The notes under the pieces are model-generated. The model was not told the DNA's origin and made no database searches. It saw nothing but the letters and a program-made list of their open reading frames with translations. The position numbers were made by a program, and so were the translations under genes. Shown here piece by piece: positions 44,729 through 57,760 of a stretch of DNA of 64,000 nucleotides. The stretch lies in assembly GCA_016699515.1 (NCBI GenBank), contig CP064978.1, forward strand, positions 682,554 through 746,553, in the 5' to 3' direction. How positions within the stretch are numbered: the first letter of the stretch is position 1; the number at the start of each line of letters is the position of its first letter. Source of the stretch: Candidatus Peregrinibacteria bacterium. GTDB lineage: Bacteria > Patescibacteriota > Gracilibacteria > UM-FILTER-43-11.

Positions 44729-44777
44729 AAAAAAGACCAGTTCGGTGTCCGCGACATGCGGGGACAAACTGGTCTTT
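44729..44777 (-). terminator. intrinsic terminator closing the cargo island
   Basis: On the minus strand, AAGACCAGTT pairs with AACTGGTCTT, with an inner GTCCGC/GCGGGAC stem. TTTTTT follows. Confidence 0.7.
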
Positions 44778-44848
44778 AAGACTATTTCTTACTAATCAAT
44801 TATACCAATTCGGTATGACAATGCAAGGGGTTTGGCTGTGGAAAAATA

Positions 44849-44995
44849 TCAGTTCAATTCCATAGCTTCATCGATATCAATATCACCGTTGGATACGAGC
44901 TCTTGCAGCTCATCGCTCAGCTCTTTGAAGTCCTCAATTTCCGAGGAATCCAATTCACCGTCGGCTACCATTTGTAAAATCTCTTCATCGTCCAT
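44849..44995 (-). CDS. 48-aa hyper-acidic protein (19 Asp/Glu, 1 Lys)
   Basis: Own codon-by-codon translation gives MDDEEILQMVADGELDSSEIEDFKELSDELQELVSNGDIDIDEAMELN. It is below the ORF-track size cut-off. Its ATG overlaps the end of the upstream nuclease gene by 11 nt. Confidence 0.5.
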   Translation of the reverse strand: MDDEEILQMVADGELDSSEIEDFKELSDELQELVSNGDIDIDEAMELN

Positions 44996-45746
44996 AGCTT
45001 TGTTGGTTAATGGCGTTCACGTATGCGCAGTAGTCACAATCTTCCGAAGCTTCGGGGATAATGTCGGCATTAAGGCAGTTATGGGCACCGATAACGGCTT
45101 TTTCTACCCAGCTATCATTGCCAGTGTAGGGAATAAGAGTTACATCGAATTCAAGCTTGCCATCGAAGGCTGCGCGATCCGCTTTGCCATTACAGTATAC
45201 AAAATAGCCCGTATCCGAAACCGTCAGCCCTCTTTTGCGGAGCAGCCATTGATACACTTCCATTTGGCGTTTATAGCCATCATGCCAGTCCTTGTTGAGC
45301 TCAGTGATCTCTTCGTCTTTGGCAGTGGCCTTATAATCCACGACAACGTATTCGCCCTTGGAGTTCTGCCAAAGGTCATCAATCGCGCCGTAAATGAGGA
45401 GATTCGTCGGTTCATGGATATACTGAATGCCAGTGAAGTTATGGCGCCACTTGGCCAAGTCTTCATGGGGGATCGGACGTGCGTCGACTCCGTATTTTTC
45501 TATCAGAGCGTGCTTCGTCCCATTAGTGCGGTGTGTGTCAAATTCTTTTTTGAGTAATGCATCGACCGCGCTGTTCAACGAGAACGGAAAACCAGGTGGG
45601 CGACCTACGCCGAGTTTGCGGTCAAAATAAAAACATCGAGGGCAACTCAAAAACAGATCGATCTTCGAGCGGCTGAGTTTAAATGGCTCAGTGTCTTTTG
45701 GATCGTACAGGTTTCTAGTGCGTTGTGGCGTGTAGTATTCTGACAT
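44985..45746 (-). CDS. Cas4-like PD-(D/E)XK nuclease with a Cys cluster
   Basis: The nuclease motifs are IYGAIDDL, YVVVDYKAT and RQMEVYQWLL. The cysteines lie in CPRCFY near the N-terminus and in C...CDYC near the C-terminus. GC is phage-like (48% in 45301-45360). Confidence 0.65.
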   Translation of the reverse strand: MSEYYTPQRTRNLYDPKDTEPFKLSRSKIDLFLSCPRCFYFDRKLGVGRPPGFPFSLNSAVDALLKKEFDTHRTNGTKHALIEKYGVDARPIPHEDLAKWRHNFTGIQYIHEPTNLLIYGAIDDLWQNSKGEYVVVDYKATAKDEEITELNKDWHDGYKRQMEVYQWLLRKRGLTVSDTGYFVYCNGKADRAAFDGKLEFDVTLIPYTGNDSWVEKAVIGAHNCLNADIIPEASEDCDYCAYVNAINQQSYGR

Positions 45747-45748
45747 AG

Positions 45749-48517
45749 TTATTTGAGGCTATATTTATTTTTTCTTCGTTCAAATGCTTCTTTGCCTCCC
45801 TCTAGAATCTTGCAAACACTAGCTATGATTTTTGGATTTTCTAGCGAACCAGAAGAGTAACTCAGTTTTTCTTCAGTGTTGTTTGCAATCACTACCTGCT
45901 CCGCATCTGCATTTACGACTAGATTAGCGTTGTGTGTAACGATTATAATTTGTCTGTACTTCTTGAGTTCTTTAAAGATGTCTATCAATTCGTTCATTAT
46001 GAATTCATTATCAAGATCATCTTCTGGTTGGTCAAAGATTATTGGCTTTGAGAAAGCATCTGTAGCCAACTTTAAGCAAAGGTAAACAGTTCCTCGCTGC
46101 CCAACAGAGAGCTGATCAAGCCTTTTCCCTCCATATGTGATTTTTGGAATCGTTTTGAGGTATTCGCCTCTATCTTTTAACCCAAAAAACACGTCGGCAA
46201 TTCCTACAAAACGTTCTGCGTTCTCTCCCTCAAGGTATTCTTTCAAAGAAGTGGCGATGAAATTAACCCAGTCTTCAAGTGAGTGAATCTTAAATTTTGC
46301 TATTAGAGCTTGTTTATCACGAAAGGTACGGCGATCAACCGTAGCAAGTAATTTGTTGTAGAACGCCTCTTCATCAAAGACTAATTCACCCTGAACGGCA
46401 ATTTTACCTTCTTTAAGAAGGATTTTTTCGATCAAAGTTTTATTTGCTGTCCCATGGTTATCAAGTATTCCTGACCACGCTCGATCAATCTCATTCTTTT
46501 GACGCTCATACTCTGACTTAATTTTCTCACCCAATCCCTCTCTTTCAGATAGCGTGGTTGTTAGTGAGGATTCTTGTTTAGCGATTGCTTCCAGCTGTTT
46601 TTCAGCCCACTGAATATTTGACTGGTAAGTCTTTGCGTTATCAAGCAGACTCGAAAGATCACCAGTAAAACCTTCCTGTTCAAACTCTGATTTAATTTTT
46701 TGATTTTCTTCTTCTTTTCCTTTCTTTTGCTCAAGAAGCTTCCACTTATTGTGAGCTATAGCCTCATTTTGCGTCTTAAAGTCTACCTGAGGAATTTTCT
46801 GGAAGCCCTTACTCTCATCAAGGGTTTTATTGTTTTCATCAATATTTTCGTTGAATGCGTTCTGTGTCTCAGTTAGCTCTTCAGAAAGATTATCTAGGGC
46901 GGTCACTTTTGATTCGAGAACCCGTATCTCATTAATGTTGGCCGTATATGTGGCGAGTTTTTTCTTGTTCTTCTCTGTGGTGATGCTTTTTAACAATTCT
47001 TCACTACGCTTCTTTTGAGATTCAACAAACGTTTTATCATTCAGCTTGCGCCCGTCTTCGTCTTCATATGCAAACCACGACTGCAAATCGTCAATATTTT
47101 TTAGGGTTTCTTGAATTTCTCGATCGAGCGACTGAGAAAAAAATAAGTCCTCGATCTTTAGAAGTTTTTTGACTTCGCCTGCAATAGCACCTTTCTCTGA
47201 AACCTCTTTTAAACGACGCTGAGGAATGTAAATGAAATCTAGATAATTTTCCTCTCCACCTTTATAATTTTCCGTGGTTGGATTGGGAAGATTGTCTTTG
47301 GCGTATAAAATTTCAAAATCTTCAGAATTTGAATAAGCAGAATCCGATGGCCGATGATTTTTAAAGAGGTGTGCCCAATAATCAACCATCATGCTCTTAC
47401 CCATGCCACGTCCACCGATAATGGATACCAAATTTTTATTTAAGGGTAGTTTGGTTTTAGAAAAGTAAACCTGATCCTTATCATTCTGAAAAATACCAAC
47501 CTCGTTATTGATATTCAGCTCTGAGAAGTATGGTCGATTGTACTCGTATGAAGGATTAGCTTCTTGAATTTTTACTCTTTCTGAAGGCTCGTAAAGTAAC
47601 TGCTTTAGACCATCAAAGGTTGGATCAGCTTTAATCCATGTAAATCTCTGGTTGTCTGGTTCAAATAGTTTGTCGTATGTATGACAATCTGATCCCCAAA
47701 CACAGGGCTTCAAGCTTTTAAATTCGTCTATGTATTGCTGAGGGCTCTCATGCTTCCTTCCTAGCCCCCATTCTATAGTTGCTGGATTCGAGCTGATTAG
47801 GGCATCAGATTTTTGGATGTAAACTTTTCTAACATTATGATCTTGTCCGTTCCATGAGATAGCACTTAAATCCTCATCGGAAGGGACACACATGAGATAC
47901 ATTCCTTCGAATTTTGATTTTTTGTTTGTCAGTATTTCTGCAATTTGAGAATGATTTACAACTGCACATTTCATCCCAACAAACAAATCAGAATCAGATT
48001 GAAATTCCGTGTGCTCTTGCTTTAGTTTTTTACCTAGCTCTTCTAGGTTTGATATTTTTAGCTTCCATTTCTCGTCAGTACCCTGAGGATTCCCTTCATA
48101 GATAAAATCTAAATCGTGGAGGAAATTTTCTTCAATATCCGTGATTGAAACGTCATCGGAAAAAATTACATGAAAATTTACCCGATTCCCGTTTACCAGA
48201 GTATCGAGGCGAAACTCTATGTTAGGGAAAAATGTGATTTTTTTGATTTGCTCGATTTCTTCTGCCGTAAATAATTCGGCAAGTTTCGTGTCATTGCCAA
48301 GATAGTCTTGCTTGATTTTTTTGTATCCTTCAATACAAAAATAGTCAGTGATTCCAACTACAGCAACTTGCTTTTCGATCGCTGCCTTGAATAGTTTTTT
48401 AACGTACTCTTCAAAATTGTCACCAAAACCATTATTCAAATGCGAAAAAGGGGTGTGAACCTGCAAGTCCCATTTTCTCCATTTTGATCCGCGCATGTTT
48501 TGGTCTATTTGACTCAT
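45749..48517 (-). CDS. PHP phosphoesterase domain fused to a Rad50/SbcC-like coiled-coil ABC ATPase
   Basis: The PHP ligand pattern is DLQVHT (aa 17-22), GITDYF, NIEFR, NFHVIF and GSDCHT (aa 275-280). Walker A is GGRGMGKS (aa 368-375). About 430 aa of heptad-rich sequence follow. Then come the signature LSVGQRG (aa 803), Walker B IIFDQPEDDLD and the H-loop VTHNANL. Confidence 0.7.
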   Translation of the reverse strand: MSQIDQNMRGSKWRKWDLQVHTPFSHLNNGFGDNFEEYVKKLFKAAIEKQVAVVGITDYFCIEGYKKIKQDYLGNDTKLAELFTAEEIEQIKKITFFPNIEFRLDTLVNGNRVNFHVIFSDDVSITDIEENFLHDLDFIYEGNPQGTDEKWKLKISNLEELGKKLKQEHTEFQSDSDLFVGMKCAVVNHSQIAEILTNKKSKFEGMYLMCVPSDEDLSAISWNGQDHNVRKVYIQKSDALISSNPATIEWGLGRKHESPQQYIDEFKSLKPCVWGSDCHTYDKLFEPDNQRFTWIKADPTFDGLKQLLYEPSERVKIQEANPSYEYNRPYFSELNINNEVGIFQNDKDQVYFSKTKLPLNKNLVSIIGGRGMGKSMMVDYWAHLFKNHRPSDSAYSNSEDFEILYAKDNLPNPTTENYKGGEENYLDFIYIPQRRLKEVSEKGAIAGEVKKLLKIEDLFFSQSLDREIQETLKNIDDLQSWFAYEDEDGRKLNDKTFVESQKKRSEELLKSITTEKNKKKLATYTANINEIRVLESKVTALDNLSEELTETQNAFNENIDENNKTLDESKGFQKIPQVDFKTQNEAIAHNKWKLLEQKKGKEEENQKIKSEFEQEGFTGDLSSLLDNAKTYQSNIQWAEKQLEAIAKQESSLTTTLSEREGLGEKIKSEYERQKNEIDRAWSGILDNHGTANKTLIEKILLKEGKIAVQGELVFDEEAFYNKLLATVDRRTFRDKQALIAKFKIHSLEDWVNFIATSLKEYLEGENAERFVGIADVFFGLKDRGEYLKTIPKITYGGKRLDQLSVGQRGTVYLCLKLATDAFSKPIIFDQPEDDLDNEFIMNELIDIFKELKKYRQIIIVTHNANLVVNADAEQVVIANNTEEKLSYSSGSLENPKIIASVCKILEGGKEAFERRKNKYSLK

Positions 48518-48580
48518 AAATTTCAGGGTTAAGTTAGTATTTCCGCACCCCTAGATTCGTGAGTGTGGTTATGTTATCCA

Positions 48581-49744
48581 TTAGCTTATAGAAAATATGT
48601 CATTAGGATCGCAATCTAGCTTCTTGCAGAGTTTTTCAAGCAAATCAAAGCTTATTGCTTGGGTTTTGTTATTCGCGATAGCCCAAAGCTGTTGGTAGCT
48701 GATGCCAGTATCTTTGTGTAGTTGGTGAAGGTTCTTTTGTTTACTCTTCAAGAGACTATTTAAGTTAATGGTGATATTTGAACTTTTTTGCTCACATTCA
48801 TTAAGCTGAAGGACGAGATGATTGAAAACATTCCACATCATGACTGGTGCAATTGCGTTTCCGATCTGCCTATAAGCATTGAGATCGGTTCCGATAAATT
48901 TAAAATCATCAGGGAAAGATTGTATTCTTGCTGCTTCTAGAGGGGTAAAGCGGCGATATGCATCTTTTCCCGTAGATAATACTGGATCAGTTCCATTCAA
49001 ACTTACTTTTGCCAAATGGGCATTGATCGTATTGCACGGCTCGTTAATATTTTGCGCACGCCCCTTGTTAAAAGCCTTATTAGCTTTTTTTAATCCCTCA
49101 ATTGCTCTTTTCGAGAAATGGTACTTAGGATCAACTTTTTCCTCATCCAATAAAACTTTTTTTAGCGGCACCCATTTTTTTACTGCTTTTGAAGGGAATC
49201 TATAAAATACATTAAAATCTTTTCTGATTCCTATAATAAAAACTCTCTCTCGCTTTTGTGGAACTCCATAATCTGCGGCATTCAGGATTTTATACACGAC
49301 GTTATATCCTGCATCTGAAAATGTCTCTAATATATGCTCCAAAACTTTACCGCCGTGAATATTGGTTAATCCTTTTACGTTTTCGCCGATAAAAGCTTTT
49401 GGTTGCTTATCGATAAGTATACGAGCCATTTCATTGAATAATTGCCCTCTTGGGTCACTCATGCCCTTCCTTTGACCTACGATACTGAATGTTTGGCAAG
49501 GAAAGCCGCCCATCAATACGTCATGGTCTGGAATCTCCGATGATGGAACTTCTAGGATGCTTTTGCAGGAGATATGATCTCCGAAATTAGCACGGTAGGT
49601 TTCCGTAGCTGCTTGATCAATGTCATTGGCATATACAATTTTTGTTGGATGTTTGTCAAACTTTTTTCCGAGAAACTTAAACCCACCAAGGGCACCTAGG
49701 TCGCTACCGCCACATCCTGCAAATAGTGAAGCTATAGTAATCAT
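48581..49744 (-). CDS. DNA (cytosine-5) methyltransferase with a C-terminal XRE-type HTH
   Basis: The motifs are I SLFAGCGG, IV GGFPCQTFS, VI ENVKGL, VIII QKRERVF, IX EAARIQSFPDDF and X GNAIAPV. The C-terminus, LHKDTGISYQQLWAIANNKTQAISFDLLEKLCKKLDC, is HTH-like. An ATGA overlap couples it to the upstream gene. Confidence 0.85.
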   Translation of the reverse strand: MITIASLFAGCGGSDLGALGGFKFLGKKFDKHPTKIVYANDIDQAATETYRANFGDHISCKSILEVPSSEIPDHDVLMGGFPCQTFSIVGQRKGMSDPRGQLFNEMARILIDKQPKAFIGENVKGLTNIHGGKVLEHILETFSDAGYNVVYKILNAADYGVPQKRERVFIIGIRKDFNVFYRFPSKAVKKWVPLKKVLLDEEKVDPKYHFSKRAIEGLKKANKAFNKGRAQNINEPCNTINAHLAKVSLNGTDPVLSTGKDAYRRFTPLEAARIQSFPDDFKFIGTDLNAYRQIGNAIAPVMMWNVFNHLVLQLNECEQKSSNITINLNSLLKSKQKNLHQLHKDTGISYQQLWAIANNKTQAISFDLLEKLCKKLDCDPNDIFSIS

Positions 49745-51162
49745 TTTTGCCAAATTAATAATTCGGAACGTTCTCCGCATTGATCGGAGAATACAATGTC
49801 TGCACCGTTACGCGGTGACATTTTCATAAGTTTTTGTCTGTACTTATCTACTGGGTCTTGGATGATAAACAGATCTCTGCCTTCTTTTGAAATAACGAGA
49901 CGGTAAATGAAGTATCTTTCTCCAAAGCTCTCTGCAGCGCTCCATTCATTTGGAGTTAAATGAACATTGTAAAAGTTTAATTTTTTGCTACTGATTGTGC
50001 TTTTAACTTCAATGCAACGCGTTCGTTCGTCAAATTCAACTGATTGAATATCAAATCCCATTGCAAAATGATTTGGGATTTTTTTGATCAACCTTATCAA
50101 GTCCTCACGTCCACCGACCTTCAATCTCATGCTTTCGTGACCAACAATAAGGTTTTCACCTAAGTCCCCGATATTCTTTGTTCGCGAATCTCCTCTTTCG
50201 ATGTCCTCATGCAAACTCGCGATAGCACCTTGAACCAAGGTTTCATAAGTCTCTTCTTTAATGCCAAGATATTTAAGAACATCGGTTTTAAAGAGATCGC
50301 TTCCCAAATCTCTATTTACAAAATGAAACCACTCATCTTGCAATGCCGAGATATCTTCAGATTTCAGCGAAGGATCGCCATAAAACTTGTCATAAAGAGA
50401 AAATCTTTCCGTAGAAGTAAGAAACTTTGTAATTGCTTCACGCTCACCCCAATTAATAACATAATTATTACCTCTTATTTCAAGAAGGTTTGCCAGCACC
50501 ATGTAATCAAGAATGTCCCCAGCATATCTGACAACATCGCCACTCCAATCATACTGGGTATTTGTTTTTCTGTTATCTGTAATTAATTTTAATGCTTCTG
50601 ATGCTCCCAACTGCCCTGTGGTAAATCTAAGGTCATTAAAAATACAGTGGGTTAGTTCGGCCTTGGTCAAATAAAATCTTTTTTCTCCACCATCAGTTGC
50701 TAATGCTTTTTCGCCGATTTCCAATAATTTTAAAATAAATTGGACTGGCTTAAATTTTATCCCAGCATTAATGCACTTCACTGATTCATGTGGTTTTAGA
50801 TGCCCACCAGGATATTGGAAACGAAATAAAAAATACTTAAAAAACTCAACCAAATCTTGATTTTCAGCTAACTTAAAAGCAATGTGTCCAGTTTTGTATT
50901 GGTCACCATCAGTCTCTACCAAGCCAAACAGGGAAGAAATTTCTGTTCGCCAGTTCTTTATTGTTTTTTCTTCTTTGGTGGCATTTTCTGGAAAGAGTCT
51001 TATCACACCATCGAACTTTGCGATAAATTCCTTCTTCTCGGCAGGTTTCATCTTACTGAGTTCAGTAGCCATGAAAATCAAAACCTCCTCGACATTGTTT
51101 TTGAATCGAGGCCTAATATGGTGTAGACGAAAATAAAATTGTTCGGGTGTTTGATATTTCAT
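49741..51162 (-). CDS. DUF3883-type (PD-(D/E)XK-like) putative restriction endonuclease
   Basis: The C-terminal block, GDLGENLIVGHE...GFDIQSV...CIEVKST...LTPNEWSAAESFGERYFIYRL, matches the DUF3883 pattern as I recall it. The N-terminal 330 aa or so are unassigned. The gene is sandwiched between two m5C MTases. Confidence 0.55.
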   Translation of the reverse strand: MKYQTPEQFYFRLHHIRPRFKNNVEEVLIFMATELSKMKPAEKKEFIAKFDGVIRLFPENATKEEKTIKNWRTEISSLFGLVETDGDQYKTGHIAFKLAENQDLVEFFKYFLFRFQYPGGHLKPHESVKCINAGIKFKPVQFILKLLEIGEKALATDGGEKRFYLTKAELTHCIFNDLRFTTGQLGASEALKLITDNRKTNTQYDWSGDVVRYAGDILDYMVLANLLEIRGNNYVINWGEREAITKFLTSTERFSLYDKFYGDPSLKSEDISALQDEWFHFVNRDLGSDLFKTDVLKYLGIKEETYETLVQGAIASLHEDIERGDSRTKNIGDLGENLIVGHESMRLKVGGREDLIRLIKKIPNHFAMGFDIQSVEFDERTRCIEVKSTISSKKLNFYNVHLTPNEWSAAESFGERYFIYRLVISKEGRDLFIIQDPVDKYRQKLMKMSPRNGADIVFSDQCGERSELLIWQK

Positions 51163-51163
51163 G

Positions 51164-52228
51164 TTATTGGTTTAAAAAAACGGACAGCTGTTTTGCCAGT
51201 ATTTCACCAAGCAGAGGGGGAACAGCATTGCCGACCTGCTTTGCTTGTCCTGTCGACGTTCCGTGAAAAATAAAACTATCTGGAAATGACTGGATTCTGG
51301 CTGCTTCTCTGGGCGTAGGTATACGATTGTATTTGTAATGAAAATGATGTCGGTGTCCAGTATCTATCGTAAAGCTGGGCTTTGCACTATTCAATCTAGT
51401 CCACGCAATATTTACTTTTCGCGTATCTCTTAAATTCTCGGGTAAATTTTTATAATTTCCACCATCTGGAACGAGTGAAATTATCTTAACAGTTTGATCA
51501 CTGTGCTTGCATGTCTGATGGTTATACAAGCCATCACTTTCAGCTCGCATCAAGCGTTGATATTCAGATGTTGGGTTTGTATTATATTTTGATCCGTCAA
51601 CGACTGAGCCTTCTGGTAGATCAGAGATAGCATCATTAGCGGTGATTTTACTTTTCAAATTTTCTCCAAAAATAGGTTTGGGAAATTCAAAAGTTTTACC
51701 ATTCAATAGACCTATAAATACAACTCTTTTCCTGTTTTGCGGCACTCCATAATCCGAGGCCAGTAAAACTTTATAGGAAACTGTATAGCCGAGAGATGTA
51801 AAATCTTCTAAAATCTTTTCTTTTATTTTACCGCCTCCCATTGCAATTAAATTCGGGACATTCTCCATTAAAAATGCTTTTGGTTTAAAATATGAAACAA
51901 AATTAACAAACCCTTTGTATAGAAAATTTCTGGGATCTTCCGTTAGACGCTTTCCAGATATTGAAAAACCTTGGCATGGGGGGCCACCTATAATGACATC
52001 AACATTTTTTACTTTGTATTGATTTGCAATTTCTTGGGGTGTGGTCTTGCTCAAATCGCCCAAGTGAGTCTCGGCTCCATTATGATTAGCTTTGAAAGTT
52101 TTGAGAGACTGTTCCCAATTATCAATACCAAGTAAAACTTGATAACCAGCTTTTTCAAATCCAAAAGAAAGACCGCCGCAGCCGCAAAATAAATCGATTA
52201 TTGTAGGTTTTTTTGATGTCTTGACCAT
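51164..52228 (-). CDS. DNA (cytosine-5) methyltransferase
   Basis: The motifs are I DLFCGCGG, IV GGPPCQGFS, VI ENVPNL, VIII QNRKRVVF, IX EAARIQSFPDSF and X GNAVPP. ATG 52228 is preferred over the tracked GTG 52249. Confidence 0.85.
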   Translation of the reverse strand: MVKTSKKPTIIDLFCGCGGLSFGFEKAGYQVLLGIDNWEQSLKTFKANHNGAETHLGDLSKTTPQEIANQYKVKNVDVIIGGPPCQGFSISGKRLTEDPRNFLYKGFVNFVSYFKPKAFLMENVPNLIAMGGGKIKEKILEDFTSLGYTVSYKVLLASDYGVPQNRKRVVFIGLLNGKTFEFPKPIFGENLKSKITANDAISDLPEGSVVDGSKYNTNPTSEYQRLMRAESDGLYNHQTCKHSDQTVKIISLVPDGGNYKNLPENLRDTRKVNIAWTRLNSAKPSFTIDTGHRHHFHYKYNRIPTPREAARIQSFPDSFIFHGTSTGQAKQVGNAVPPLLGEILAKQLSVFLNQ

Positions 52229-52235
52229 GGGATTG

Positions 52236-52286
52236 ATTATAAAGTCCACTTGATAATAATTATACGGTTTTAAAAAATAAATTCAA
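52236..52286 (-). promoter_or_regulatory. sigma70-like promoter elements upstream of the island
   Basis: On the minus strand, TTGAAT (52281-52286) is followed by 16 nt and then TATAAT (52259-52264). A second TATAAT lies at 52236-52241, 8 nt before ATG 52228, so a leaderless start is possible. Confidence 0.4.
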
Positions 52287-52316
52287 CCCTTTAACCTGTG
52301 GATAGAAAGCCCCTGA

Positions 52317-53087
52317 TCAATCCTCGATATATGGCATGTAACTATGTCTACAATTCGGATGAATCGGCAATTCGGGTGCTTTATCGTACCCATTACTCTT
52401 CCCAGTCAGACTATAGACCTTGCCTTCATAGGGCTGGCAAATTGGACAGGCAGTAGCGTGCGTTGATATTTCGACCAGATCAACGTTGTTGGAAAGCAGA
52501 CGGTTTTTTGTGCCTTCGCCATTGGCTTTTATCACATGCGTGCGCACGAGCATTTCGGCATAGCTATCGATACTCCATCTTTTTCCGCCACGATCAACAA
52601 GTGCCGTAAAGCCAGTGTCTTCGATGAGTCCTTTTACCTCACGCTTCACGTTTGCTAACGCTTCACCCTGAAGTTGCCCCGAGACGATTTGCTCATTGAT
52701 CTTCTTTTTCACAATCTCACTCACAAACCCTCGACCAGCACGCCGCACGCCTTCAATACCAGCAGCAAAATCAAGATAAGCGTCTTCGGTTAATGCTTGA
52801 ATGGCTTCTTTGTGCACTTGCCCAAAACCCATCTTGTCGAACGTAAGTCCGAGCTTGCCAGCGTCATCTACGGCTTGTTGACTGCCTTTCTTGTATTCCT
52901 GTGGAATCTCGATCACCAGCCAGTTCTTCGTTTCGCGCTCAAGATCGGCAGCGATCTTGTTGATGTCTCCCATAATAACTTTTCGAATCAGGATGATCGG
53001 CTGTCTCGGGGCGGCTCTTTTGACCGTTGTTGCCAACCGTTTCGTTGCTCGGCGGTAAATGTTGATGAGTTTTGTTTCGTTGGCCAT
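52317..53087 (-). CDS. head morphogenesis protein (SPP1 gp7 / Mu F family)
   Basis: The start was trimmed to MANETKLINIY. The C-terminal motif CPICQPYEGKVY...PIHPNCRHSYMPY is typical of the family. Confidence 0.75.
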   Translation of the reverse strand: MANETKLINIYRRATKRLATTVKRAAPRQPIILIRKVIMGDINKIAADLERETKNWLVIEIPQEYKKGSQQAVDDAGKLGLTFDKMGFGQVHKEAIQALTEDAYLDFAAGIEGVRRAGRGFVSEIVKKKINEQIVSGQLQGEALANVKREVKGLIEDTGFTALVDRGGKRWSIDSYAEMLVRTHVIKANGEGTKNRLLSNNVDLVEISTHATACPICQPYEGKVYSLTGKSNGYDKAPELPIHPNCRHSYMPYIED

Positions 53088-53292: not shown

Positions 53293-54709
53293 TTAAAGGC
53301 TAATTTCAGGCACTTGTTTACGCGCCTGATCCATTTGATAGTTCGACATTTCATCCTGCTTCGCGATCTTGTCGAGTTCGTTTTGCAATGTCTCGCCCTC
53401 AAGCCCCTTGAGCTCACGGATTGCCGTTTCTTTGCTCTCCATTCCGCTTTCAACCATGATTTGGTGAGTCTGTGCTTCGGAAAACAAATCACGCGGCAAT
53501 CCCAAATCCCATACGAAGGAAATATCCACGTTGTCTGGGAATTTTTTCGCGCCTTCAAAGAAGAGTGCGGTCTTCAAAATATCAATCAGTTTTGCCTCGT
53601 AGCTTCGTTGTTTGCGCTTGATCTTCTTGAGAAACGCGGCCATGCGCAGTTTCGCCGTTTCTACCTTTTCCACTCCGCCTTTGTCTTCCAGTCCCAAGAA
53701 TGACACAGGCGTTTGAGTAACCGTGCAGATTTGTCTAATAAGACCTTCGATCTGCTTGAATCCTTCCTCGATCAGTGGATTCGAATTGGTGATGTACTGC
53801 GGAACGATGTCGCCCTTTTCAACGAGGAAGATATCTTGTGTGCTATCCATTTCGCCCTTCTTGCTTAGCACGCCTTCGCCAACTGCTACTTTTGAATTCA
53901 GGTGCTTGATGAGCTGCACGGATATTTGCGTGATGCGATCGTTTATTTCCTCGAACAAATTCATCACGCTTTCGTAAGCGGAAATGCCAAAGCGTTCCTT
54001 TACCGTCTTGAAATTGTCGATCTGGAAAATCGGTATGTAATCCAGCTCCGTATCTTCCTCGGCTGGCAAGTCAGCACTGAATAGTGCGAGCTCGGTCAGC
54101 TGCGATTGCTTCATGTCGGGCGTGGTCGTCCAGAGTTCGTGGACGATCTTGCCTTTGTTGTTTTCTAGCTTGTGAATCTGTTTGTAGAGGAAGGTTTCTT
54201 TCTTTTGGTTCTTCGGATTCACGAGGTCGATGTAAGAAGCGATTACGATCTGCCGTGGTTCTTCGCCAAGACGCACACCCGTGAAGTCTGGGTAGTAGTT
54301 GTCGTACGGTATTTCTTCGATAATGGCCGTCTTATCCTTTTGCCGCACGGCGATAACCGCGAAGCCTGCCACGTCCTGCATGACGGCGCTTTGGTAAAGC
54401 TTTTCGTCGAGGTAATTGTTCTGAATGATGGCGTTGATTTTTCTTTTCCGTCGGCTTTTGTTCTTCGGATTCGTTGGTCTGAATTTTCAATTGCTCGCCG
54501 AACAGAAAGTCGGCCGCCGTCAACGAGATGATCTGGCCGACGTTGTATGCGAGATAGAGCAGTGTTTTCTTTTTGGTATCTTCCTCGAAATAACTCTTGA
54601 GTTTGAAGACCTTGCTATGAAGTCCTTTGAACACGTTGTAGTAATTATTCAGTTTTGCCACGCGATTAAAGTCTTCGTTGGTCGGAAATTGTGTTGAGAT
54701 GTCGCTCAT
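53293..54709 (-). CDS. portal protein, frameshift at a T5/A5 run (54438-54442)
   Basis: ORFs 54332..54709 and 53293..54381 join as ...KPTEKKINAIIQNNYLDEKLYQSAVMQDVAGFAV if the A5 run is A4. The gene sits between TerL and MuF, and the combined length is about 470 aa. Confidence 0.75.
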
Positions 54710-56503: not shown

Positions 56504-57760
56504 TCAGGAGGATTTTTGAGCCTTCTTGCCCGTGAAGTCTTCCCAGCGTTTTACGATCACGTCGACGTATTTCGGGTCGAGTTCCATGCCGTAAGATACG
56601 CGGTGGGTTTTCTCGCAGGCAATCAAAGCGGAGCCTGATCCCATGAAGAGGTCGAGCACGATGTCACCAGATTTACTGCTGTTTACGATGGCGTAAGAGA
56701 CCAGCTCCACGGGTTTCTGGGTCGGATGGACGTATTCCTGCACATTACTGCGCGACATACTCCATACAGTCGTTTTGCCCTGCGTTTCATAGCGCTTCAT
56801 TCGTTGCGCCCATGCCAAGAGTTCCTTTTCTGATTTCTGGAAGTCCCACACGGTGGAGTGCGAGCGGTCGCCGTAAAACTGCGTTTTCTCGCCTTTGATT
56901 CCCGCGTAGAAGAACGGTTCATGTTTCCAGCGGTAATCACCCCAGCCGAGCGCGCTTGATGGCTTATTCCAGATGAGCTGGCTCTTCACTTCGAATCCCG
57001 TCTTTTCCAAGGCGCCTTCGAATTGCCGTTGTGTTGATGAGCTATGGAAGACATAAATGCCCGAACCATTCTTCATCGCTTCGCGGTAGTTCTGGAATGA
57101 CTTGGTCAGAAACGCCACGAAAGCGTCATCGCTCATATTGTCATTCTTGATGTGATTCTTAGCCTTTTCGCCCGTGCCTTTGTAGTTCACGTTGTACGGC
57201 GGATCGGTGAAGACCATGTCCGCTTTGTGGCCGTTCATGAGCTTAGCCACGTCTTCCTTGCTGGTCGAGTCTCCGCACATCAGGCGGTGCTCGCCGAGCA
57301 GGTAGATTTCACCGAGTTTTGAAACGGCCGTTTCTGGCAGCTCTGGCACTTCATCGTCTTTGTCGTCGGGATCAAGGTTCAGAAAGAGTTGGTCGATTTC
57401 AGACGAATCAAAACCGACGTCGAGCAGCATTTCTTCATCGAAGTTTGCAAGCAAATCCATATCCCAGTGTCCCAAGTTTTTGTTGAGACGCAGGTTAAGT
57501 TCCTTTTCCTTTTCGATGTCGCTAATTTTGAGGTAATGCACGGGCACTTCCTTGATGCCCATTTGCTTTGCCATGCGCACGCGGAAGTGTCCGCCGATGA
57601 TGATGTTCTTGCGCTTTTCAGCGCTGTTCACGATCACGGGTTCCACAAAGCCAAAGCGCTCAATGGATTTCCTGAGTTCTTGCTCTTCCTTTTCGGTCGA
57701 GGCACGCGGGTTGTAGTCCGCAAAGATGAGTTGTTCTATGTTTACTTGTTCGATTTTCAT
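56504..57760 (-). CDS. ParB-like nuclease domain fused to an N6-adenine or N4-cytosine DNA methyltransferase
   Basis: The N-terminus, NPRASTEKE...GGHFRVRMAK, is ParB-like. Motif IV is FTDPPYN and motif I is LDLFMGSGSALIACEK. That order indicates the beta class. Confidence 0.8.
   Translation of the reverse strand: MKIEQVNIEQLIFADYNPRASTEKEEQELRKSIERFGFVEPVIVNSAEKRKNIIIGGHFRVRMAKQMGIKEVPVHYLKISDIEKEKELNLRLNKNLGHWDMDLLANFDEEMLLDVGFDSSEIDQLFLNLDPDDKDDEVPELPETAVSKLGEIYLLGEHRLMCGDSTSKEDVAKLMNGHKADMVFTDPPYNVNYKGTGEKAKNHIKNDNMSDDAFVAFLTKSFQNYREAMKNGSGIYVFHSSSTQRQFEGALEKTGFEVKSQLIWNKPSSALGWGDYRWKHEPFFYAGIKGEKTQFYGDRSHSTVWDFQKSEKELLAWAQRMKRYETQGKTTVWSMSRSNVQEYVHPTQKPVELVSYAIVNSSKSGDIVLDLFMGSGSALIACEKTHRVSYGMELDPKYVDVIVKRWEDFTGKKAQKSS

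Follow-up and report, generated by a model that had tools for sequence, protein, structure and literature searches.

A prophage-borne TrlF-family protein with a PHP domain and a split ABC head, related to the anti-phage nuclease Ppl

The minus-strand gene at 45749..48517 of the window (the whole 64,000-nucleotide stretch of DNA that was analysed) encodes a protein of 922 aa which is a member of the catalogued TrlF family, a family that also contains the tested anti-phage nuclease Ppl. We consider it probable, at roughly 70%, that the product is a TrlF/Ppl-type protein in which a PHP (polymerase and histidinol phosphatase) exonuclease is gated by an NTP-sensing ABC head, and that it acts as prophage-borne anti-phage defence; the defence function is one that we infer by homology.

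Results

Family assignment

The gene (922 codons and a stop) was defined by its open reading frame, its translation, NCBIfam model NF045780 ("TrlF family AAA-like ATPase") and an AlphaFold2 model of the whole protein (mean pLDDT 89.4). The initial annotation had described the open reading frame correctly except that the strand was missing, and each of the nine motifs that it quoted was found at the residues it gave. On NF045780 the protein scored 565.3 bits, with the cutoff at 350, and the match runs end to end, protein residues 9-919 corresponding to profile positions 1-943 of 944. The architecture of the family is present: an N-terminal PHP domain, an ABC head whose two lobes are parted by a helical insertion, a DQPEDDLD Walker B and a THNAN H-loop. 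Ten of ten distant genome relatives tested also pass this model. When 61 homologues with 38-93% identity to the 922-aa query were aligned, residues H21, D58, E101, H116, D277, H279, K374, Q433, S804, G806, D829 to E832 and H862 proved invariant, and the motifs are therefore not a product of chance.

A sister family from the same curators, the Spaf_1101 family AAA-like ATPase (NF045781), has the C-terminal lobe in common with the 922-aa protein (150 bits, best stretch aa 798-920 only), and its cutoff of 475 is not reached. RefSeq already applies the TrlF name, on hundreds of plasmids, while literature searches for the name found no relevant publication. An exact look-up of the 922-aa protein in public assemblies found nothing on record.

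Comparison with Ppl

The initial annotation had tentatively mentioned two names, ppl in PADLOC and TrlF-like, and both were right: the protein belongs to the TrlF family and is related to Ppl. Ppl of E. coli (plasmid protein WP_015059139) scores 1,330 bits on its model NF042955 and also passes NF045780 at full length, with 477 bits. Its elements stand in the same order as those of the 922-aa protein, namely PHP domain, Walker A, a long helical stretch, signature, DQPEDDLD, H-loop and an EGG.xAF tail; of the 60 residues invariant in TrlF it retains 43, with the PHP ligands and DQPEDDLD among them, and it also has Gln at the position of the Walker B catalytic Glu. Since Ppl passes the TrlF model and shares the layout, the fusion is the defining layout of a large known family. 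The novelty that had been implied for a PHP and ATPase fusion with an insertion is thus lost, this being the standard layout of at least 1,610 representatives of 50%-identity clusters (E ≤ 1e-30).

The two proteins are collinear in the N-terminal, DxH/Walker A and C-terminal blocks, but by BLASTP only three short blocks align, with 24-39% identity. Ppl is about 80 aa shorter before Walker A (GSRGSGKS from about residue 290, against 368 in the 922-aa protein), and it has HxH and D-H where the 922-aa protein has QxH and D-Y. On NF042955 the 922-aa protein reached 111.2 bits, far from the cutoff of 1,000, and the best stretch comprised aa 798-916 only; the PADLOC Ppl model gave 86 bits over aa 802-916 only, short of a full-length match. 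Because the Ppl-like blocks are short, the substrate and the trigger of the 922-aa protein may differ from those of Ppl.

Papers that cite the original Ppl study describe Ppl as a 3'-5' exonuclease acting on single strands, which bound NTPs keep inactive (PMC12904381, PMC13434339). Inhibition is ascribed there to NTPs bound at both the PHP and the NTPase domains (PMC12904381; PMC13434339, citing Xu et al. 2026, Mol Cell 86:180), and the enzyme is said to be switched on by NTP depletion together with 3'-OH ends (PMC12904381; PMC13434339). Likewise, a single gene is reported to suffice for protection (PMC12904381, PMC11482910), and T7 plaque formation to be impaired by Ppl (PMC11482910).

The PHP domain

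PDB sequence and profile searches with the 922-aa protein returned ABC heads only; the PHP domain had no match, and no structure of Ppl or of a TrlF protein came up. Therefore, the fold of the N-terminal domain (aa 9-325; 47543..48493, minus strand) was tested with a separate AlphaFold2 domain model (pLDDT 94.2, pTM 0.91) and Foldseek, together with the alignment columns. All of the top 20 Foldseek matches in the PDB were PHP proteins (E 1.6e-6 to 8e-3, probability 0.63-1.00, TM about 0.3-0.5), including BAD_1165, PolC, Pol III alpha, RNase AM and M. tuberculosis DnaE1; Pfam PHP gave 13.7 bits, which is below threshold. According to the model, the N-terminal domain has the PHP fold, as the initial annotation had proposed.

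The PHP-side motifs are DLQVHT (17-22), GITDYF (55-60), NIEFR (99-103), NFHVIF (114-119) and GSDCHT (275-280), and the family-invariant metal-ligand candidates are H21, D58, E101, H116, D277 and H279. The ligand pattern had been called complete, which it appears not to be: motif I reads Q-x-H instead of H-x-H, with Q19 in place of the first His. At this alignment position His is found in 51 of 61 relatives and Gln in the other ten, so that Gln is a minority state, and nothing in the 922-aa protein disqualifies it from the TrlF family. In motif II, D-Y replaces the usual D-H throughout the 61-sequence alignment. Since a canonical metal-binding His is replaced, Q19 could weaken the nuclease. Among the residues proposed earlier for mutation, K374 was correctly named, whereas the supposed H20 and H22 are V20 and T22, the relevant residues being Q19 and H21.

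The ABC head and its helical insertion

The N-terminal ABC lobe (aa 326-460; 47138..47542, minus strand) was recognized by its motifs, by invariance and by a profile match to the N-lobes of Rad50 and AriA. It carries Walker A, GGRGMGKS (aa 368-375; nt 47393-47416, minus strand), and the Q-loop residue Q433, and G368, K374, S375 and Q433 are all invariant in the TrlF alignment. The C-terminal lobe (aa 701-922; 45752..46417, minus strand) carries the signature LSVGQRG (803-809), Walker B IIFDQPEDDLD (aa 826-836; nt 46010-46042, minus strand) and the H-loop VTHNANL (860-866) with H862.

Rad50 was the best ATPase profile match among solved structures (E = 2e-8), followed by AriA as the second-best class (E = 5e-7). 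In Foldseek searches the ATPase resembled SMC, Rad50, RecN and JetC heads as well as phage Rad50-like recombination endonuclease subunits, and the best match was an SMC head together with its coiled coil and joint (5xei). Pfam SMC_N (PF02463) scored 26.9 bits, below its gathering threshold of 40.

The interval from Walker A to the signature measures 435 aa, of which the helical insertion (aa 461-700; 46418..47137, minus strand) makes up about 240 aa and the remainder belongs to both lobes of the head. By DSSP on the model, helices span residues 462-482, 495-512, 518-565, 581-614, 621-660 and 662-682, forming an ascending arm (about 462-565), an apex loop (566-580) and a descending arm (about 581-700). 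In a heptad-register test of aa 440-705, 36% of 28-residue windows exceeded the 95th percentile of shuffles, compared with 4.7% elsewhere, and the helices are predicted to pair as an antiparallel coiled coil. A Rad50/SMC-type ATPase split by a helical, heptad-patterned insertion, as first described, is thus upheld by profile, Foldseek, DSSP and heptad test alike; the K/E/Q/L-rich spacer is as helical and heptad-patterned as had been said, but about 240 aa long and not 430. The cysteines of the protein are at residues 61, 184, 210, 272, 278, 814 and 902 only. As none lies between residues 279 and 813, and hence none in the insertion, there is no CxxC zinc hook at the apex, where the initial annotation had suggested looking for one.

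In Walker B, Q830 aligns opposite the catalytic Glu of Rad50 (IILDEP) and SMC (LFDEID), and all 61 aligned sequences share D829, Q830, P831 and E832. The best PDB sequence match, the SMC head chain 1xex_B, has Gln at the same position (LFDQIDAHLD). In engineered ABC and SMC heads, replacement of the catalytic Glu by Gln blocks hydrolysis. The natural replacement in TrlF proteins would, on sequence grounds, fit a nucleotide sensor better than a motor. Slow hydrolysis by the TrlF head is something we only infer, because E832 could serve as an alternative catalytic base.

These results bear on the proposal that the protein is a single-chain SbcCD/Mre11-Rad50 analogue, in which ATP-driven engagement of the heads clamps DNA ends or hairpins and the fused nuclease cuts them, for repair or for destruction of foreign DNA. 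Rad50/SbcC has the same ABC-head motifs (Walker A, Q-loop, signature, Walker B Asp and H-loop), its head is likewise split by a helical arm, it too is associated with a metal-dependent nuclease, and both the Rad50 profile match and the structural matches given above agree with it, as does a nuclease domain fused in cis. However, the nuclease in Mre11/SbcD is a separate subunit of calcineurin fold and not a fused PHP domain, and the TrlF protein lacks the zinc hook, has much shorter arms (about 100 residues each, with breaks) and carries Gln for the catalytic Glu in every aligned member and in Ppl. No Mre11/SbcD-type gene was found near the TrlF gene of the window, the neighbours being methyltransferases, a BpuJI-like endonuclease, a PD-(D/E)XK protein and phage head proteins, and the patchy, mobile distribution described below is not that of a housekeeping gene such as Rad50/SbcC. 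Furthermore, the relative Ppl is reported as an NTP-inhibited exonuclease and not as ATP-driven (PMC12904381, PMC13434339), which argues against ATP-dependent clamping and cutting. A close SbcCD/Mre11-Rad50 analogy is therefore not supported, and this proposal seems to us unlikely.

Other ABC proteins of defence islands, PARIS AriA, OLD and Gabija GajA, also have heads with insertions, and the P-E behind the Walker B Asp resembles their DEPE motif. Their nucleases are of the TOPRIM type, fused C-terminally or separate, in contrast to the N-terminal PHP domain of the TrlF protein, and the PADLOC models AriA, HEC-01A, mad3 and PDC-M49A matched the 922-aa protein weakly, far below family level.

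Distribution of the family

Among plasmids, 1,148 records match the TrlF protein, 825 of them predicted conjugative. In IMG/VR, 36 contigs carry a TrlF relative; isolated phages gave seven matching records, of which only one covers more than the C-terminal ~130 residues. The neighbours of TrlF genes include type I restriction-modification (R-M), MADS, AriA and Old proteins. The homologues are thus linked to mobile and defence loci and are not housekeeping proteins, a link on which the initial annotation had depended.

A prophage cargo slot behind a restriction-modification cassette

The TrlF gene is accessory prophage cargo, placed between minor-capsid and scaffold genes and immediately downstream of an R-M cassette; a location in a prophage head module is rare in the family. 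The cassette (48519..52320, minus strand), identified by Pfam, PADLOC and comparison with the related phage L001, encodes a C5 methyltransferase (51164-52249, minus strand), a BpuJI-like endonuclease (49741-51162, minus strand) and another C5 methyltransferase, whose C-terminus bears an HTH (48581-49780, minus strand). It is swappable: DNA homology to L001, which carries a different, type I/ISP-like R-M system at this position, breaks off at 52321 and sets in again at 48518, a single base ahead of the TrlF ATG. GC content is 37-39% in the cassette and 38% in the TrlF gene, compared with 47-53% in the head genes. An intrinsic-terminator-like hairpin with a U-tract (44729..44777, minus strand; RNA fold -24.2 kcal/mol, z = -4.4 against shuffles) closes the cargo block ahead of the scaffold and capsid genes. 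The portal gene is frameshifted, so that the prophage may be decaying. The capsid has only ~24% identity to its best matches in isolated phages, and the phage has no cultured relative. In the window, tRNA and Rfam scans found nothing, and the promoter scan was at background (25 sites, 21 ± 5 expected).

A function for the phage itself, such as degradation of host DNA, end processing in replication or recombination, or countering of host defence, should be weighed here. The TrlF gene is 83-84% identical in nucleotides and 93% in protein to its L001 counterpart, a divergence about the same as that of the structural genes, which indicates long residence in the phage lineage under purifying selection; Rad50-like recombination nucleases are, moreover, often phage-encoded. 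On the other hand, the slot is without cargo in phage relatives with 59% identical capsids, a 93% identical relative has metal-resistance genes there instead of TrlF, and in general distant relatives have it empty and close ones fill it with other cargo; the phage can thus do without TrlF. A low GC content and a terminator at the flank, as seen here, typify accessory inserts, and most family members are held by plasmids and chromosomes. We therefore doubt that the gene serves the phage's own cycle.

Because homology starts one base before the ATG in both phages, TrlF has no conserved promoter of its own, and it follows the R-M cassette, whichever one the phage has, at a distance of 63 or 11 nt. 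This arrangement would suit a back-up tied to restriction, in which the adjacent R-M system silences or transcribes TrlF and the protein fires when a phage disables restriction; PrrC with EcoprrI is an analogue. Clustering of the neighbours at 82 TrlF loci gave HsdR-like (11 loci) and N6-methyltransferase (5 loci) genes, on the same strand, as the commonest neighbours, in keeping with such a tie. However, no fixed partner gene emerged from this clustering, in which the HsdR-like cluster was the largest, about 85% of the loci have no R-M gene beside TrlF, and the association may merely reflect the clustering of defence islands. Ppl is reported to protect as a single gene (PMC12904381, PMC11482910). 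A back-up tied to the R-M system in this way is thus quite improbable.

Downstream, a PD-(D/E)XK nuclease gene (Cas4-like, four-Cys; 44985..45746, minus strand; PDDEXK_1 57.6 bits, Pfam) starts 2 nt past the TrlF stop. On the same strand and kept beside TrlF in L001 as well, it might work as a pair with TrlF, which would do the sensing or loading, while the PD-(D/E)XK protein would be the effector nuclease and could compensate for H19Q in the PHP site. Gene contexts led us to reject it as a partner. It is beside TrlF in none of 80 genome loci, at another locus (L132) an HsdR gene immediately precedes it in the same phage slot and TrlF is absent, and close TrlF homologues stand without it (P0003, 69% identical and also with Q19, and P0012). 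Its homologues number more than 8,000; many of them are 75-80% identical and some lie in chromosomal housekeeping contexts, one copy adjoining murB and secA in a MAG chromosome, and its GC of 48% is that of the phage backbone, as against 38% for TrlF. The pairing is very improbable.

Discussion

For the TrlF/Ppl-type reading that we prefer, homology to Ppl and the motifs suggest the following course. The PHP domain would be a metal-dependent exonuclease attacking DNA 3' ends, and the Walker A and signature motifs of the ABC head would let it dimerise around NTP. With the catalytic Glu naturally Gln, the head would retain nucleotide and not turn it over quickly, so that it might sense the cellular NTP level and keep the nuclease off. 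An infecting phage that drains NTPs and exposes DNA ends would release the nuclease, and replicating phage DNA would be degraded. The prophage might benefit by the exclusion of competing phages and by a back-up to the adjacent restriction system.

A wider proposal, which we put forward tentatively and think rather unlikely, is that TrlF proteins outside the Ppl clade are nucleotide-gated end nucleases that form a second layer behind restriction, with the Gln head as NTP sensor. In this phage lineage TrlF would then be transcribed from whichever R-M cassette recombines before its start codon, and the exclusion module of a temperate phage, whose host is possibly one of the Patescibacteria, would have two layers. 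H19Q, a variant that recurs, could serve to adjust the use of metal or the choice of substrate.

With these results, what had been a possible new enzyme architecture becomes one more protein of a family that is already catalogued and in which a relative has been characterised. They also point to an annotation blind spot. The PADLOC and NCBIfam Ppl models recognise only the C-terminus of the 922-aa protein and the TrlF family is broad; therefore, many likely Ppl-type genes go uncounted as defence. The phage locus offers a clear cargo slot within a head-gene module, where the exchange of R-M cassettes is bounded exactly by a stop codon on one side and the TrlF start codon on the other. How TrlF proteins could sense nucleotide depletion is suggested by the Gln that invariably stands in for the catalytic Glu.

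The window protein belongs to the TrlF family

The gene at 45749-48517 (minus strand) is a single ORF of 922 codons, and all nine motifs quoted in the initial annotation were found in its product at the residues given for them. Against NCBIfam, the protein matched NF045780 ('TrlF family AAA-like ATPase') end-to-end with 565 bits over a cutoff of 350, and fell far short of both the model for Ppl, a characterised anti-phage protein (111 bits, cutoff 1,000), and that for Spaf_1101 (150 bits, cutoff 475). The PADLOC Ppl model matched only the last ~115 residues, and Pfam gave SMC_N and PHP matches that were both sub-threshold. Membership of the TrlF family is therefore nearly certain. The name TrlF was not found in literature searches.

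To relate the two families, WP_015059139, a genuine Ppl encoded by an IncF plasmid of E. coli, was used as reference. It reached 1,330 bits with the Ppl model and 477 bits, over its full length, with the TrlF model, so that by the curated criterion Ppl is nested within TrlF. Ppl and the window protein align in three collinear blocks (the N-terminus, the DxH/Walker A region and the C-terminal lobe), have DQPEDDLD in common, and Ppl carries the identical residue at 43 of 60 TrlF-invariant columns. Taken together, these model scores, blocks and common residues indicate that joining a PHP domain to a split ABC head is the family's usual architecture. The novelty implied for the fusion is not supported; the links to Ppl and to TrlF suggested in the initial annotation both hold.

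Conserved residues were then examined in an alignment of 61 homologues with 38-93% identity to the window protein. Invariant residues were H21, D58, E101, H116, D277 and H279 in the PHP part, and G368/K374/S375, Q433, S804/G806, D829-Q830-P831-E832 and H862 in the ABC part. Because the motif residues are invariant across the sample, the pattern is real and under selection. The PHP ligand pattern described as complete departs from the canonical one in motif I, which in the window protein reads Q-x-H and not H-x-H. Of the 61 proteins, 51 have His at position 19 and 10 have Gln, the latter being the window protein and scattered others. The proposed H20A/H22A mutants would alter V20 and T22 instead. 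In addition, the alignment with homologues and Ppl starts at G10-S11, and model confidence is low for residues 1-8; for these reasons the true start may be Met8 rather than Met1 (window 48496-48517, minus strand).

Structure of the PHP domain and the ATPase head

Pfam, PDB sequence and profile searches left the PHP fold of the N-domain unconfirmed. A separate model of aa 1-325 (pLDDT 94.2) was therefore compared by Foldseek, and the top 20 matches were all PHP proteins, among them BAD_1165, PolC, Pol III alpha, RNase AM, M. tuberculosis DnaE1 and a Chromobacterium amidohydrolase, which confirms the fold. The full-length AlphaFold2 model (mean pLDDT 89.4, pTM 0.73) matched the heads of SMC, cohesin, condensin, JetC, Rad50, RecN and RecF, and in a viral library it matched phage Rad50-like recombination endonuclease subunits. 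When the family profile was run against solved structures, Rad50 was the best match (E = 2e-8), followed by PARIS AriA. The Rad50-like nature of the ATPase head is thus borne out.

The initial annotation described about 430 aa of heptad-rich sequence splitting this head. Walker A and the signature are 435 residues apart, and in the model only ~aa 461-700 form a helical insertion. It has two arms of ~100 residues each, interrupted by breaks: helices at aa 462-482, 495-512 and 518-565, a loop at aa 566-580, and helices at aa 581-614, 621-660 and 662-682. Within the insertion, 36% of windows had heptad-register scores above the 95th percentile of shuffles, versus 4.7% elsewhere, and the arms would pair as an antiparallel coiled coil. 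No cysteine lies between residues 279 and 813, so there is no zinc hook. A heptad-patterned split of the ATPase therefore stands, but it is shorter than described and hookless.

A glutamine at the Walker B catalytic position

The residue following the Walker B Asp of the window protein is Gln, not Glu. In HMMER alignments, Rad50 (IILDEP) and SMC (LFDEID) have their catalytic Glu at the position of Q830; this Gln occurs naturally in 61/61 aligned TrlF proteins and also in Ppl. The best single-sequence PDB match, and among solved structures the nearest in sequence to the C-terminal lobe (aa 826-836 region), is the SMC head chain 1xex_B, which reads LFDQIDAHLD and which we take to be an engineered E-to-Q mutant that traps ATP-engaged heads. 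ABC ATPases with Gln in place of Glu at this position keep nucleotide binding and head engagement, and their hydrolysis is crippled. We infer that the TrlF head is a nucleotide-occupancy switch, with E832 as a possible alternative base.

TrlF is carried in a cargo slot of a prophage

The first 27 kb of the window look chromosomal (ClpB/C-like, GATase_5 and solute-binding protein genes), and from ~28 kb to its end the window is prophage, with genes for tape measure, SU10-type capsid, minor capsid, portal, terminase and a ParB-methyltransferase. On the minus strand, terminase, portal, minor capsid, a C5 methyltransferase, a BpuJI-like endonuclease and a C5 methyltransferase with an HTH domain precede TrlF, which is followed by a PD-(D/E)XK gene, a 48-aa ORF, a putative terminator hairpin, scaffold and capsid. 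The GC content of TrlF and the R-M genes is 37-39%, versus 47-53% for the head genes.

The slot between minor capsid and scaffold (window 44729-52320, minus strand) was compared with related phage loci, L001, L126, L127-L129 and L132. The TrlF of L001 is 93% identical to that of the window, and the DNA flanking the R-M segment is 83-84% identical on both sides. Homology stops at the minor-capsid stop codon (52321) and restarts at 48518, one base before the TrlF ATG; between these breakpoints L001 carries DUF5655, an HTH protein and a type I/ISP-like R-M system. In L132 the slot holds an AGS_C protein and HsdR, directly followed by PD-(D/E)XK, without TrlF. In L126 (93% capsid identity), as read from translations only, it encodes a product whose His motifs are of the multicopper-oxidase type, a membrane protein similar to cation-efflux carriers and, in a small ORF, an HTH-like product. 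In relatives with 59% capsid identity the slot is empty. Since cargo differs or is absent among relatives, the gap is a cargo hotspot and TrlF a dispensable accessory gene of this phage lineage, without a conserved promoter of its own.

The R-M cassette of the window (48581-52249, minus strand) consists of a BpuJI-like type II endonuclease (BpuJI_N + NOV_C) between two C5 cytosine methyltransferases. The C-terminal HTH of one of these is of the Cro/C1 type and may be a built-in controller. After the cargo block, the stretch 44729-44830 (minus strand) has a strong hairpin with a U-tract (-24 kcal/mol, z = -4.4) and, ~20 nt upstream of the hairpin and immediately ahead of the scaffold gene, a near-consensus TTGCAT-17-TATAAT; it may serve as a terminator or, alternatively, as a regulated leader of the late genes. 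One extra base in an A-run near 54440 interrupts the portal gene (53293-54709, minus strand): the L001 portal (471 aa) matches 54709-54440 and 54441-53296 in different frames. Either the sequence is in error here or the prophage is decaying. Upstream of terminase, a ParB N-terminal domain is fused to an N6/N4 DNA methyltransferase (56504-57760, minus strand); such fusions are common phage methylases of the anti-restriction type.

The adjacent PD-(D/E)XK gene is not a partner of TrlF

A Cas4-like PD-(D/E)XK protein (44985-45746, minus strand; Cys 35, 38, 237 and 240) is encoded 2 nt downstream of TrlF. As a TrlF partner it was rejected: it is absent beside TrlF in 80/80 genome loci and beside the close homologues P0003 (69% identical) and P0012, and L132 has it without TrlF. 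The family is very large and highly conserved (>8,000 matches, many 75-80% identical). Some copies adjoin murB and secA in Candidatus Paceibacterota MAG chromosomes, and a phage that carries a conserved gene of this host type may have a Patescibacteria host. No neighbour of TrlF is fixed across 82 loci; the commonest are a same-strand HsdR-like gene (11/82) and an N6-methyltransferase (5/82), and others encode MADS, AriA, Old, Mrr and MksE proteins.

Distribution of the family

When 1.84 billion cluster representatives were searched in full with HMMER, 1,610 matched at E <= 1e-30 and 5,598 at E <= 1e-10. At least 587 TrlF-type loci occur in species-representative genomes of many phyla, and 10/10 distant loci tested by NCBIfam were TrlF. 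Matches were found in 1,148 plasmid records, 825 of them predicted to be conjugative, and many of the plasmid proteins already carry the RefSeq label 'TrlF family AAA-like ATPase'. One conjugative KPC Klebsiella plasmid (NZ_CP039794.1, 3787-8685) has its TrlF gene directly after a CBASS-like pair of nucleotidyltransferase and S-4TM pore-forming effector and adjoining a GNAT/DUF1778 toxin-antitoxin pair, and is another defence-island setting for TrlF. Viral carriage is rare (36 IMG/VR contigs and 7 isolated-phage records, of which only one extends past the C-terminal lobe).

A probable Ppl-like, NTP-gated nuclease

Ppl impairs T7 plaquing and is countered by Bas63 gp130 (PMC11482910). According to a paper that cites the Ppl study (PMC12904381), NTPs bound to the PHP and NTPase domains both inhibit the protein, NTP depletion relieves the inhibition, and 3'-OH ends produced by phage homing endonucleases are detected. 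PMC13434339 and a Druantia preprint refer to that study for NTP-dependent inhibition as well. This behaviour fits the inference from the motifs better than an ATP-driven, Rad50-like clamp on DNA ends. The close SbcCD analogy was accordingly not upheld, given the NTP-inhibited Ppl, the missing zinc hook and the Gln at the catalytic Glu position. In the preferred reading, the window protein would be a Ppl-like, NTP-gated PHP exonuclease (probability about 0.7), its defence function and mechanism being assigned by homology. NTPs occupying the head would keep the PHP exonuclease off, and the prophage would carry TrlF as exclusion cargo adjoining its restriction system.
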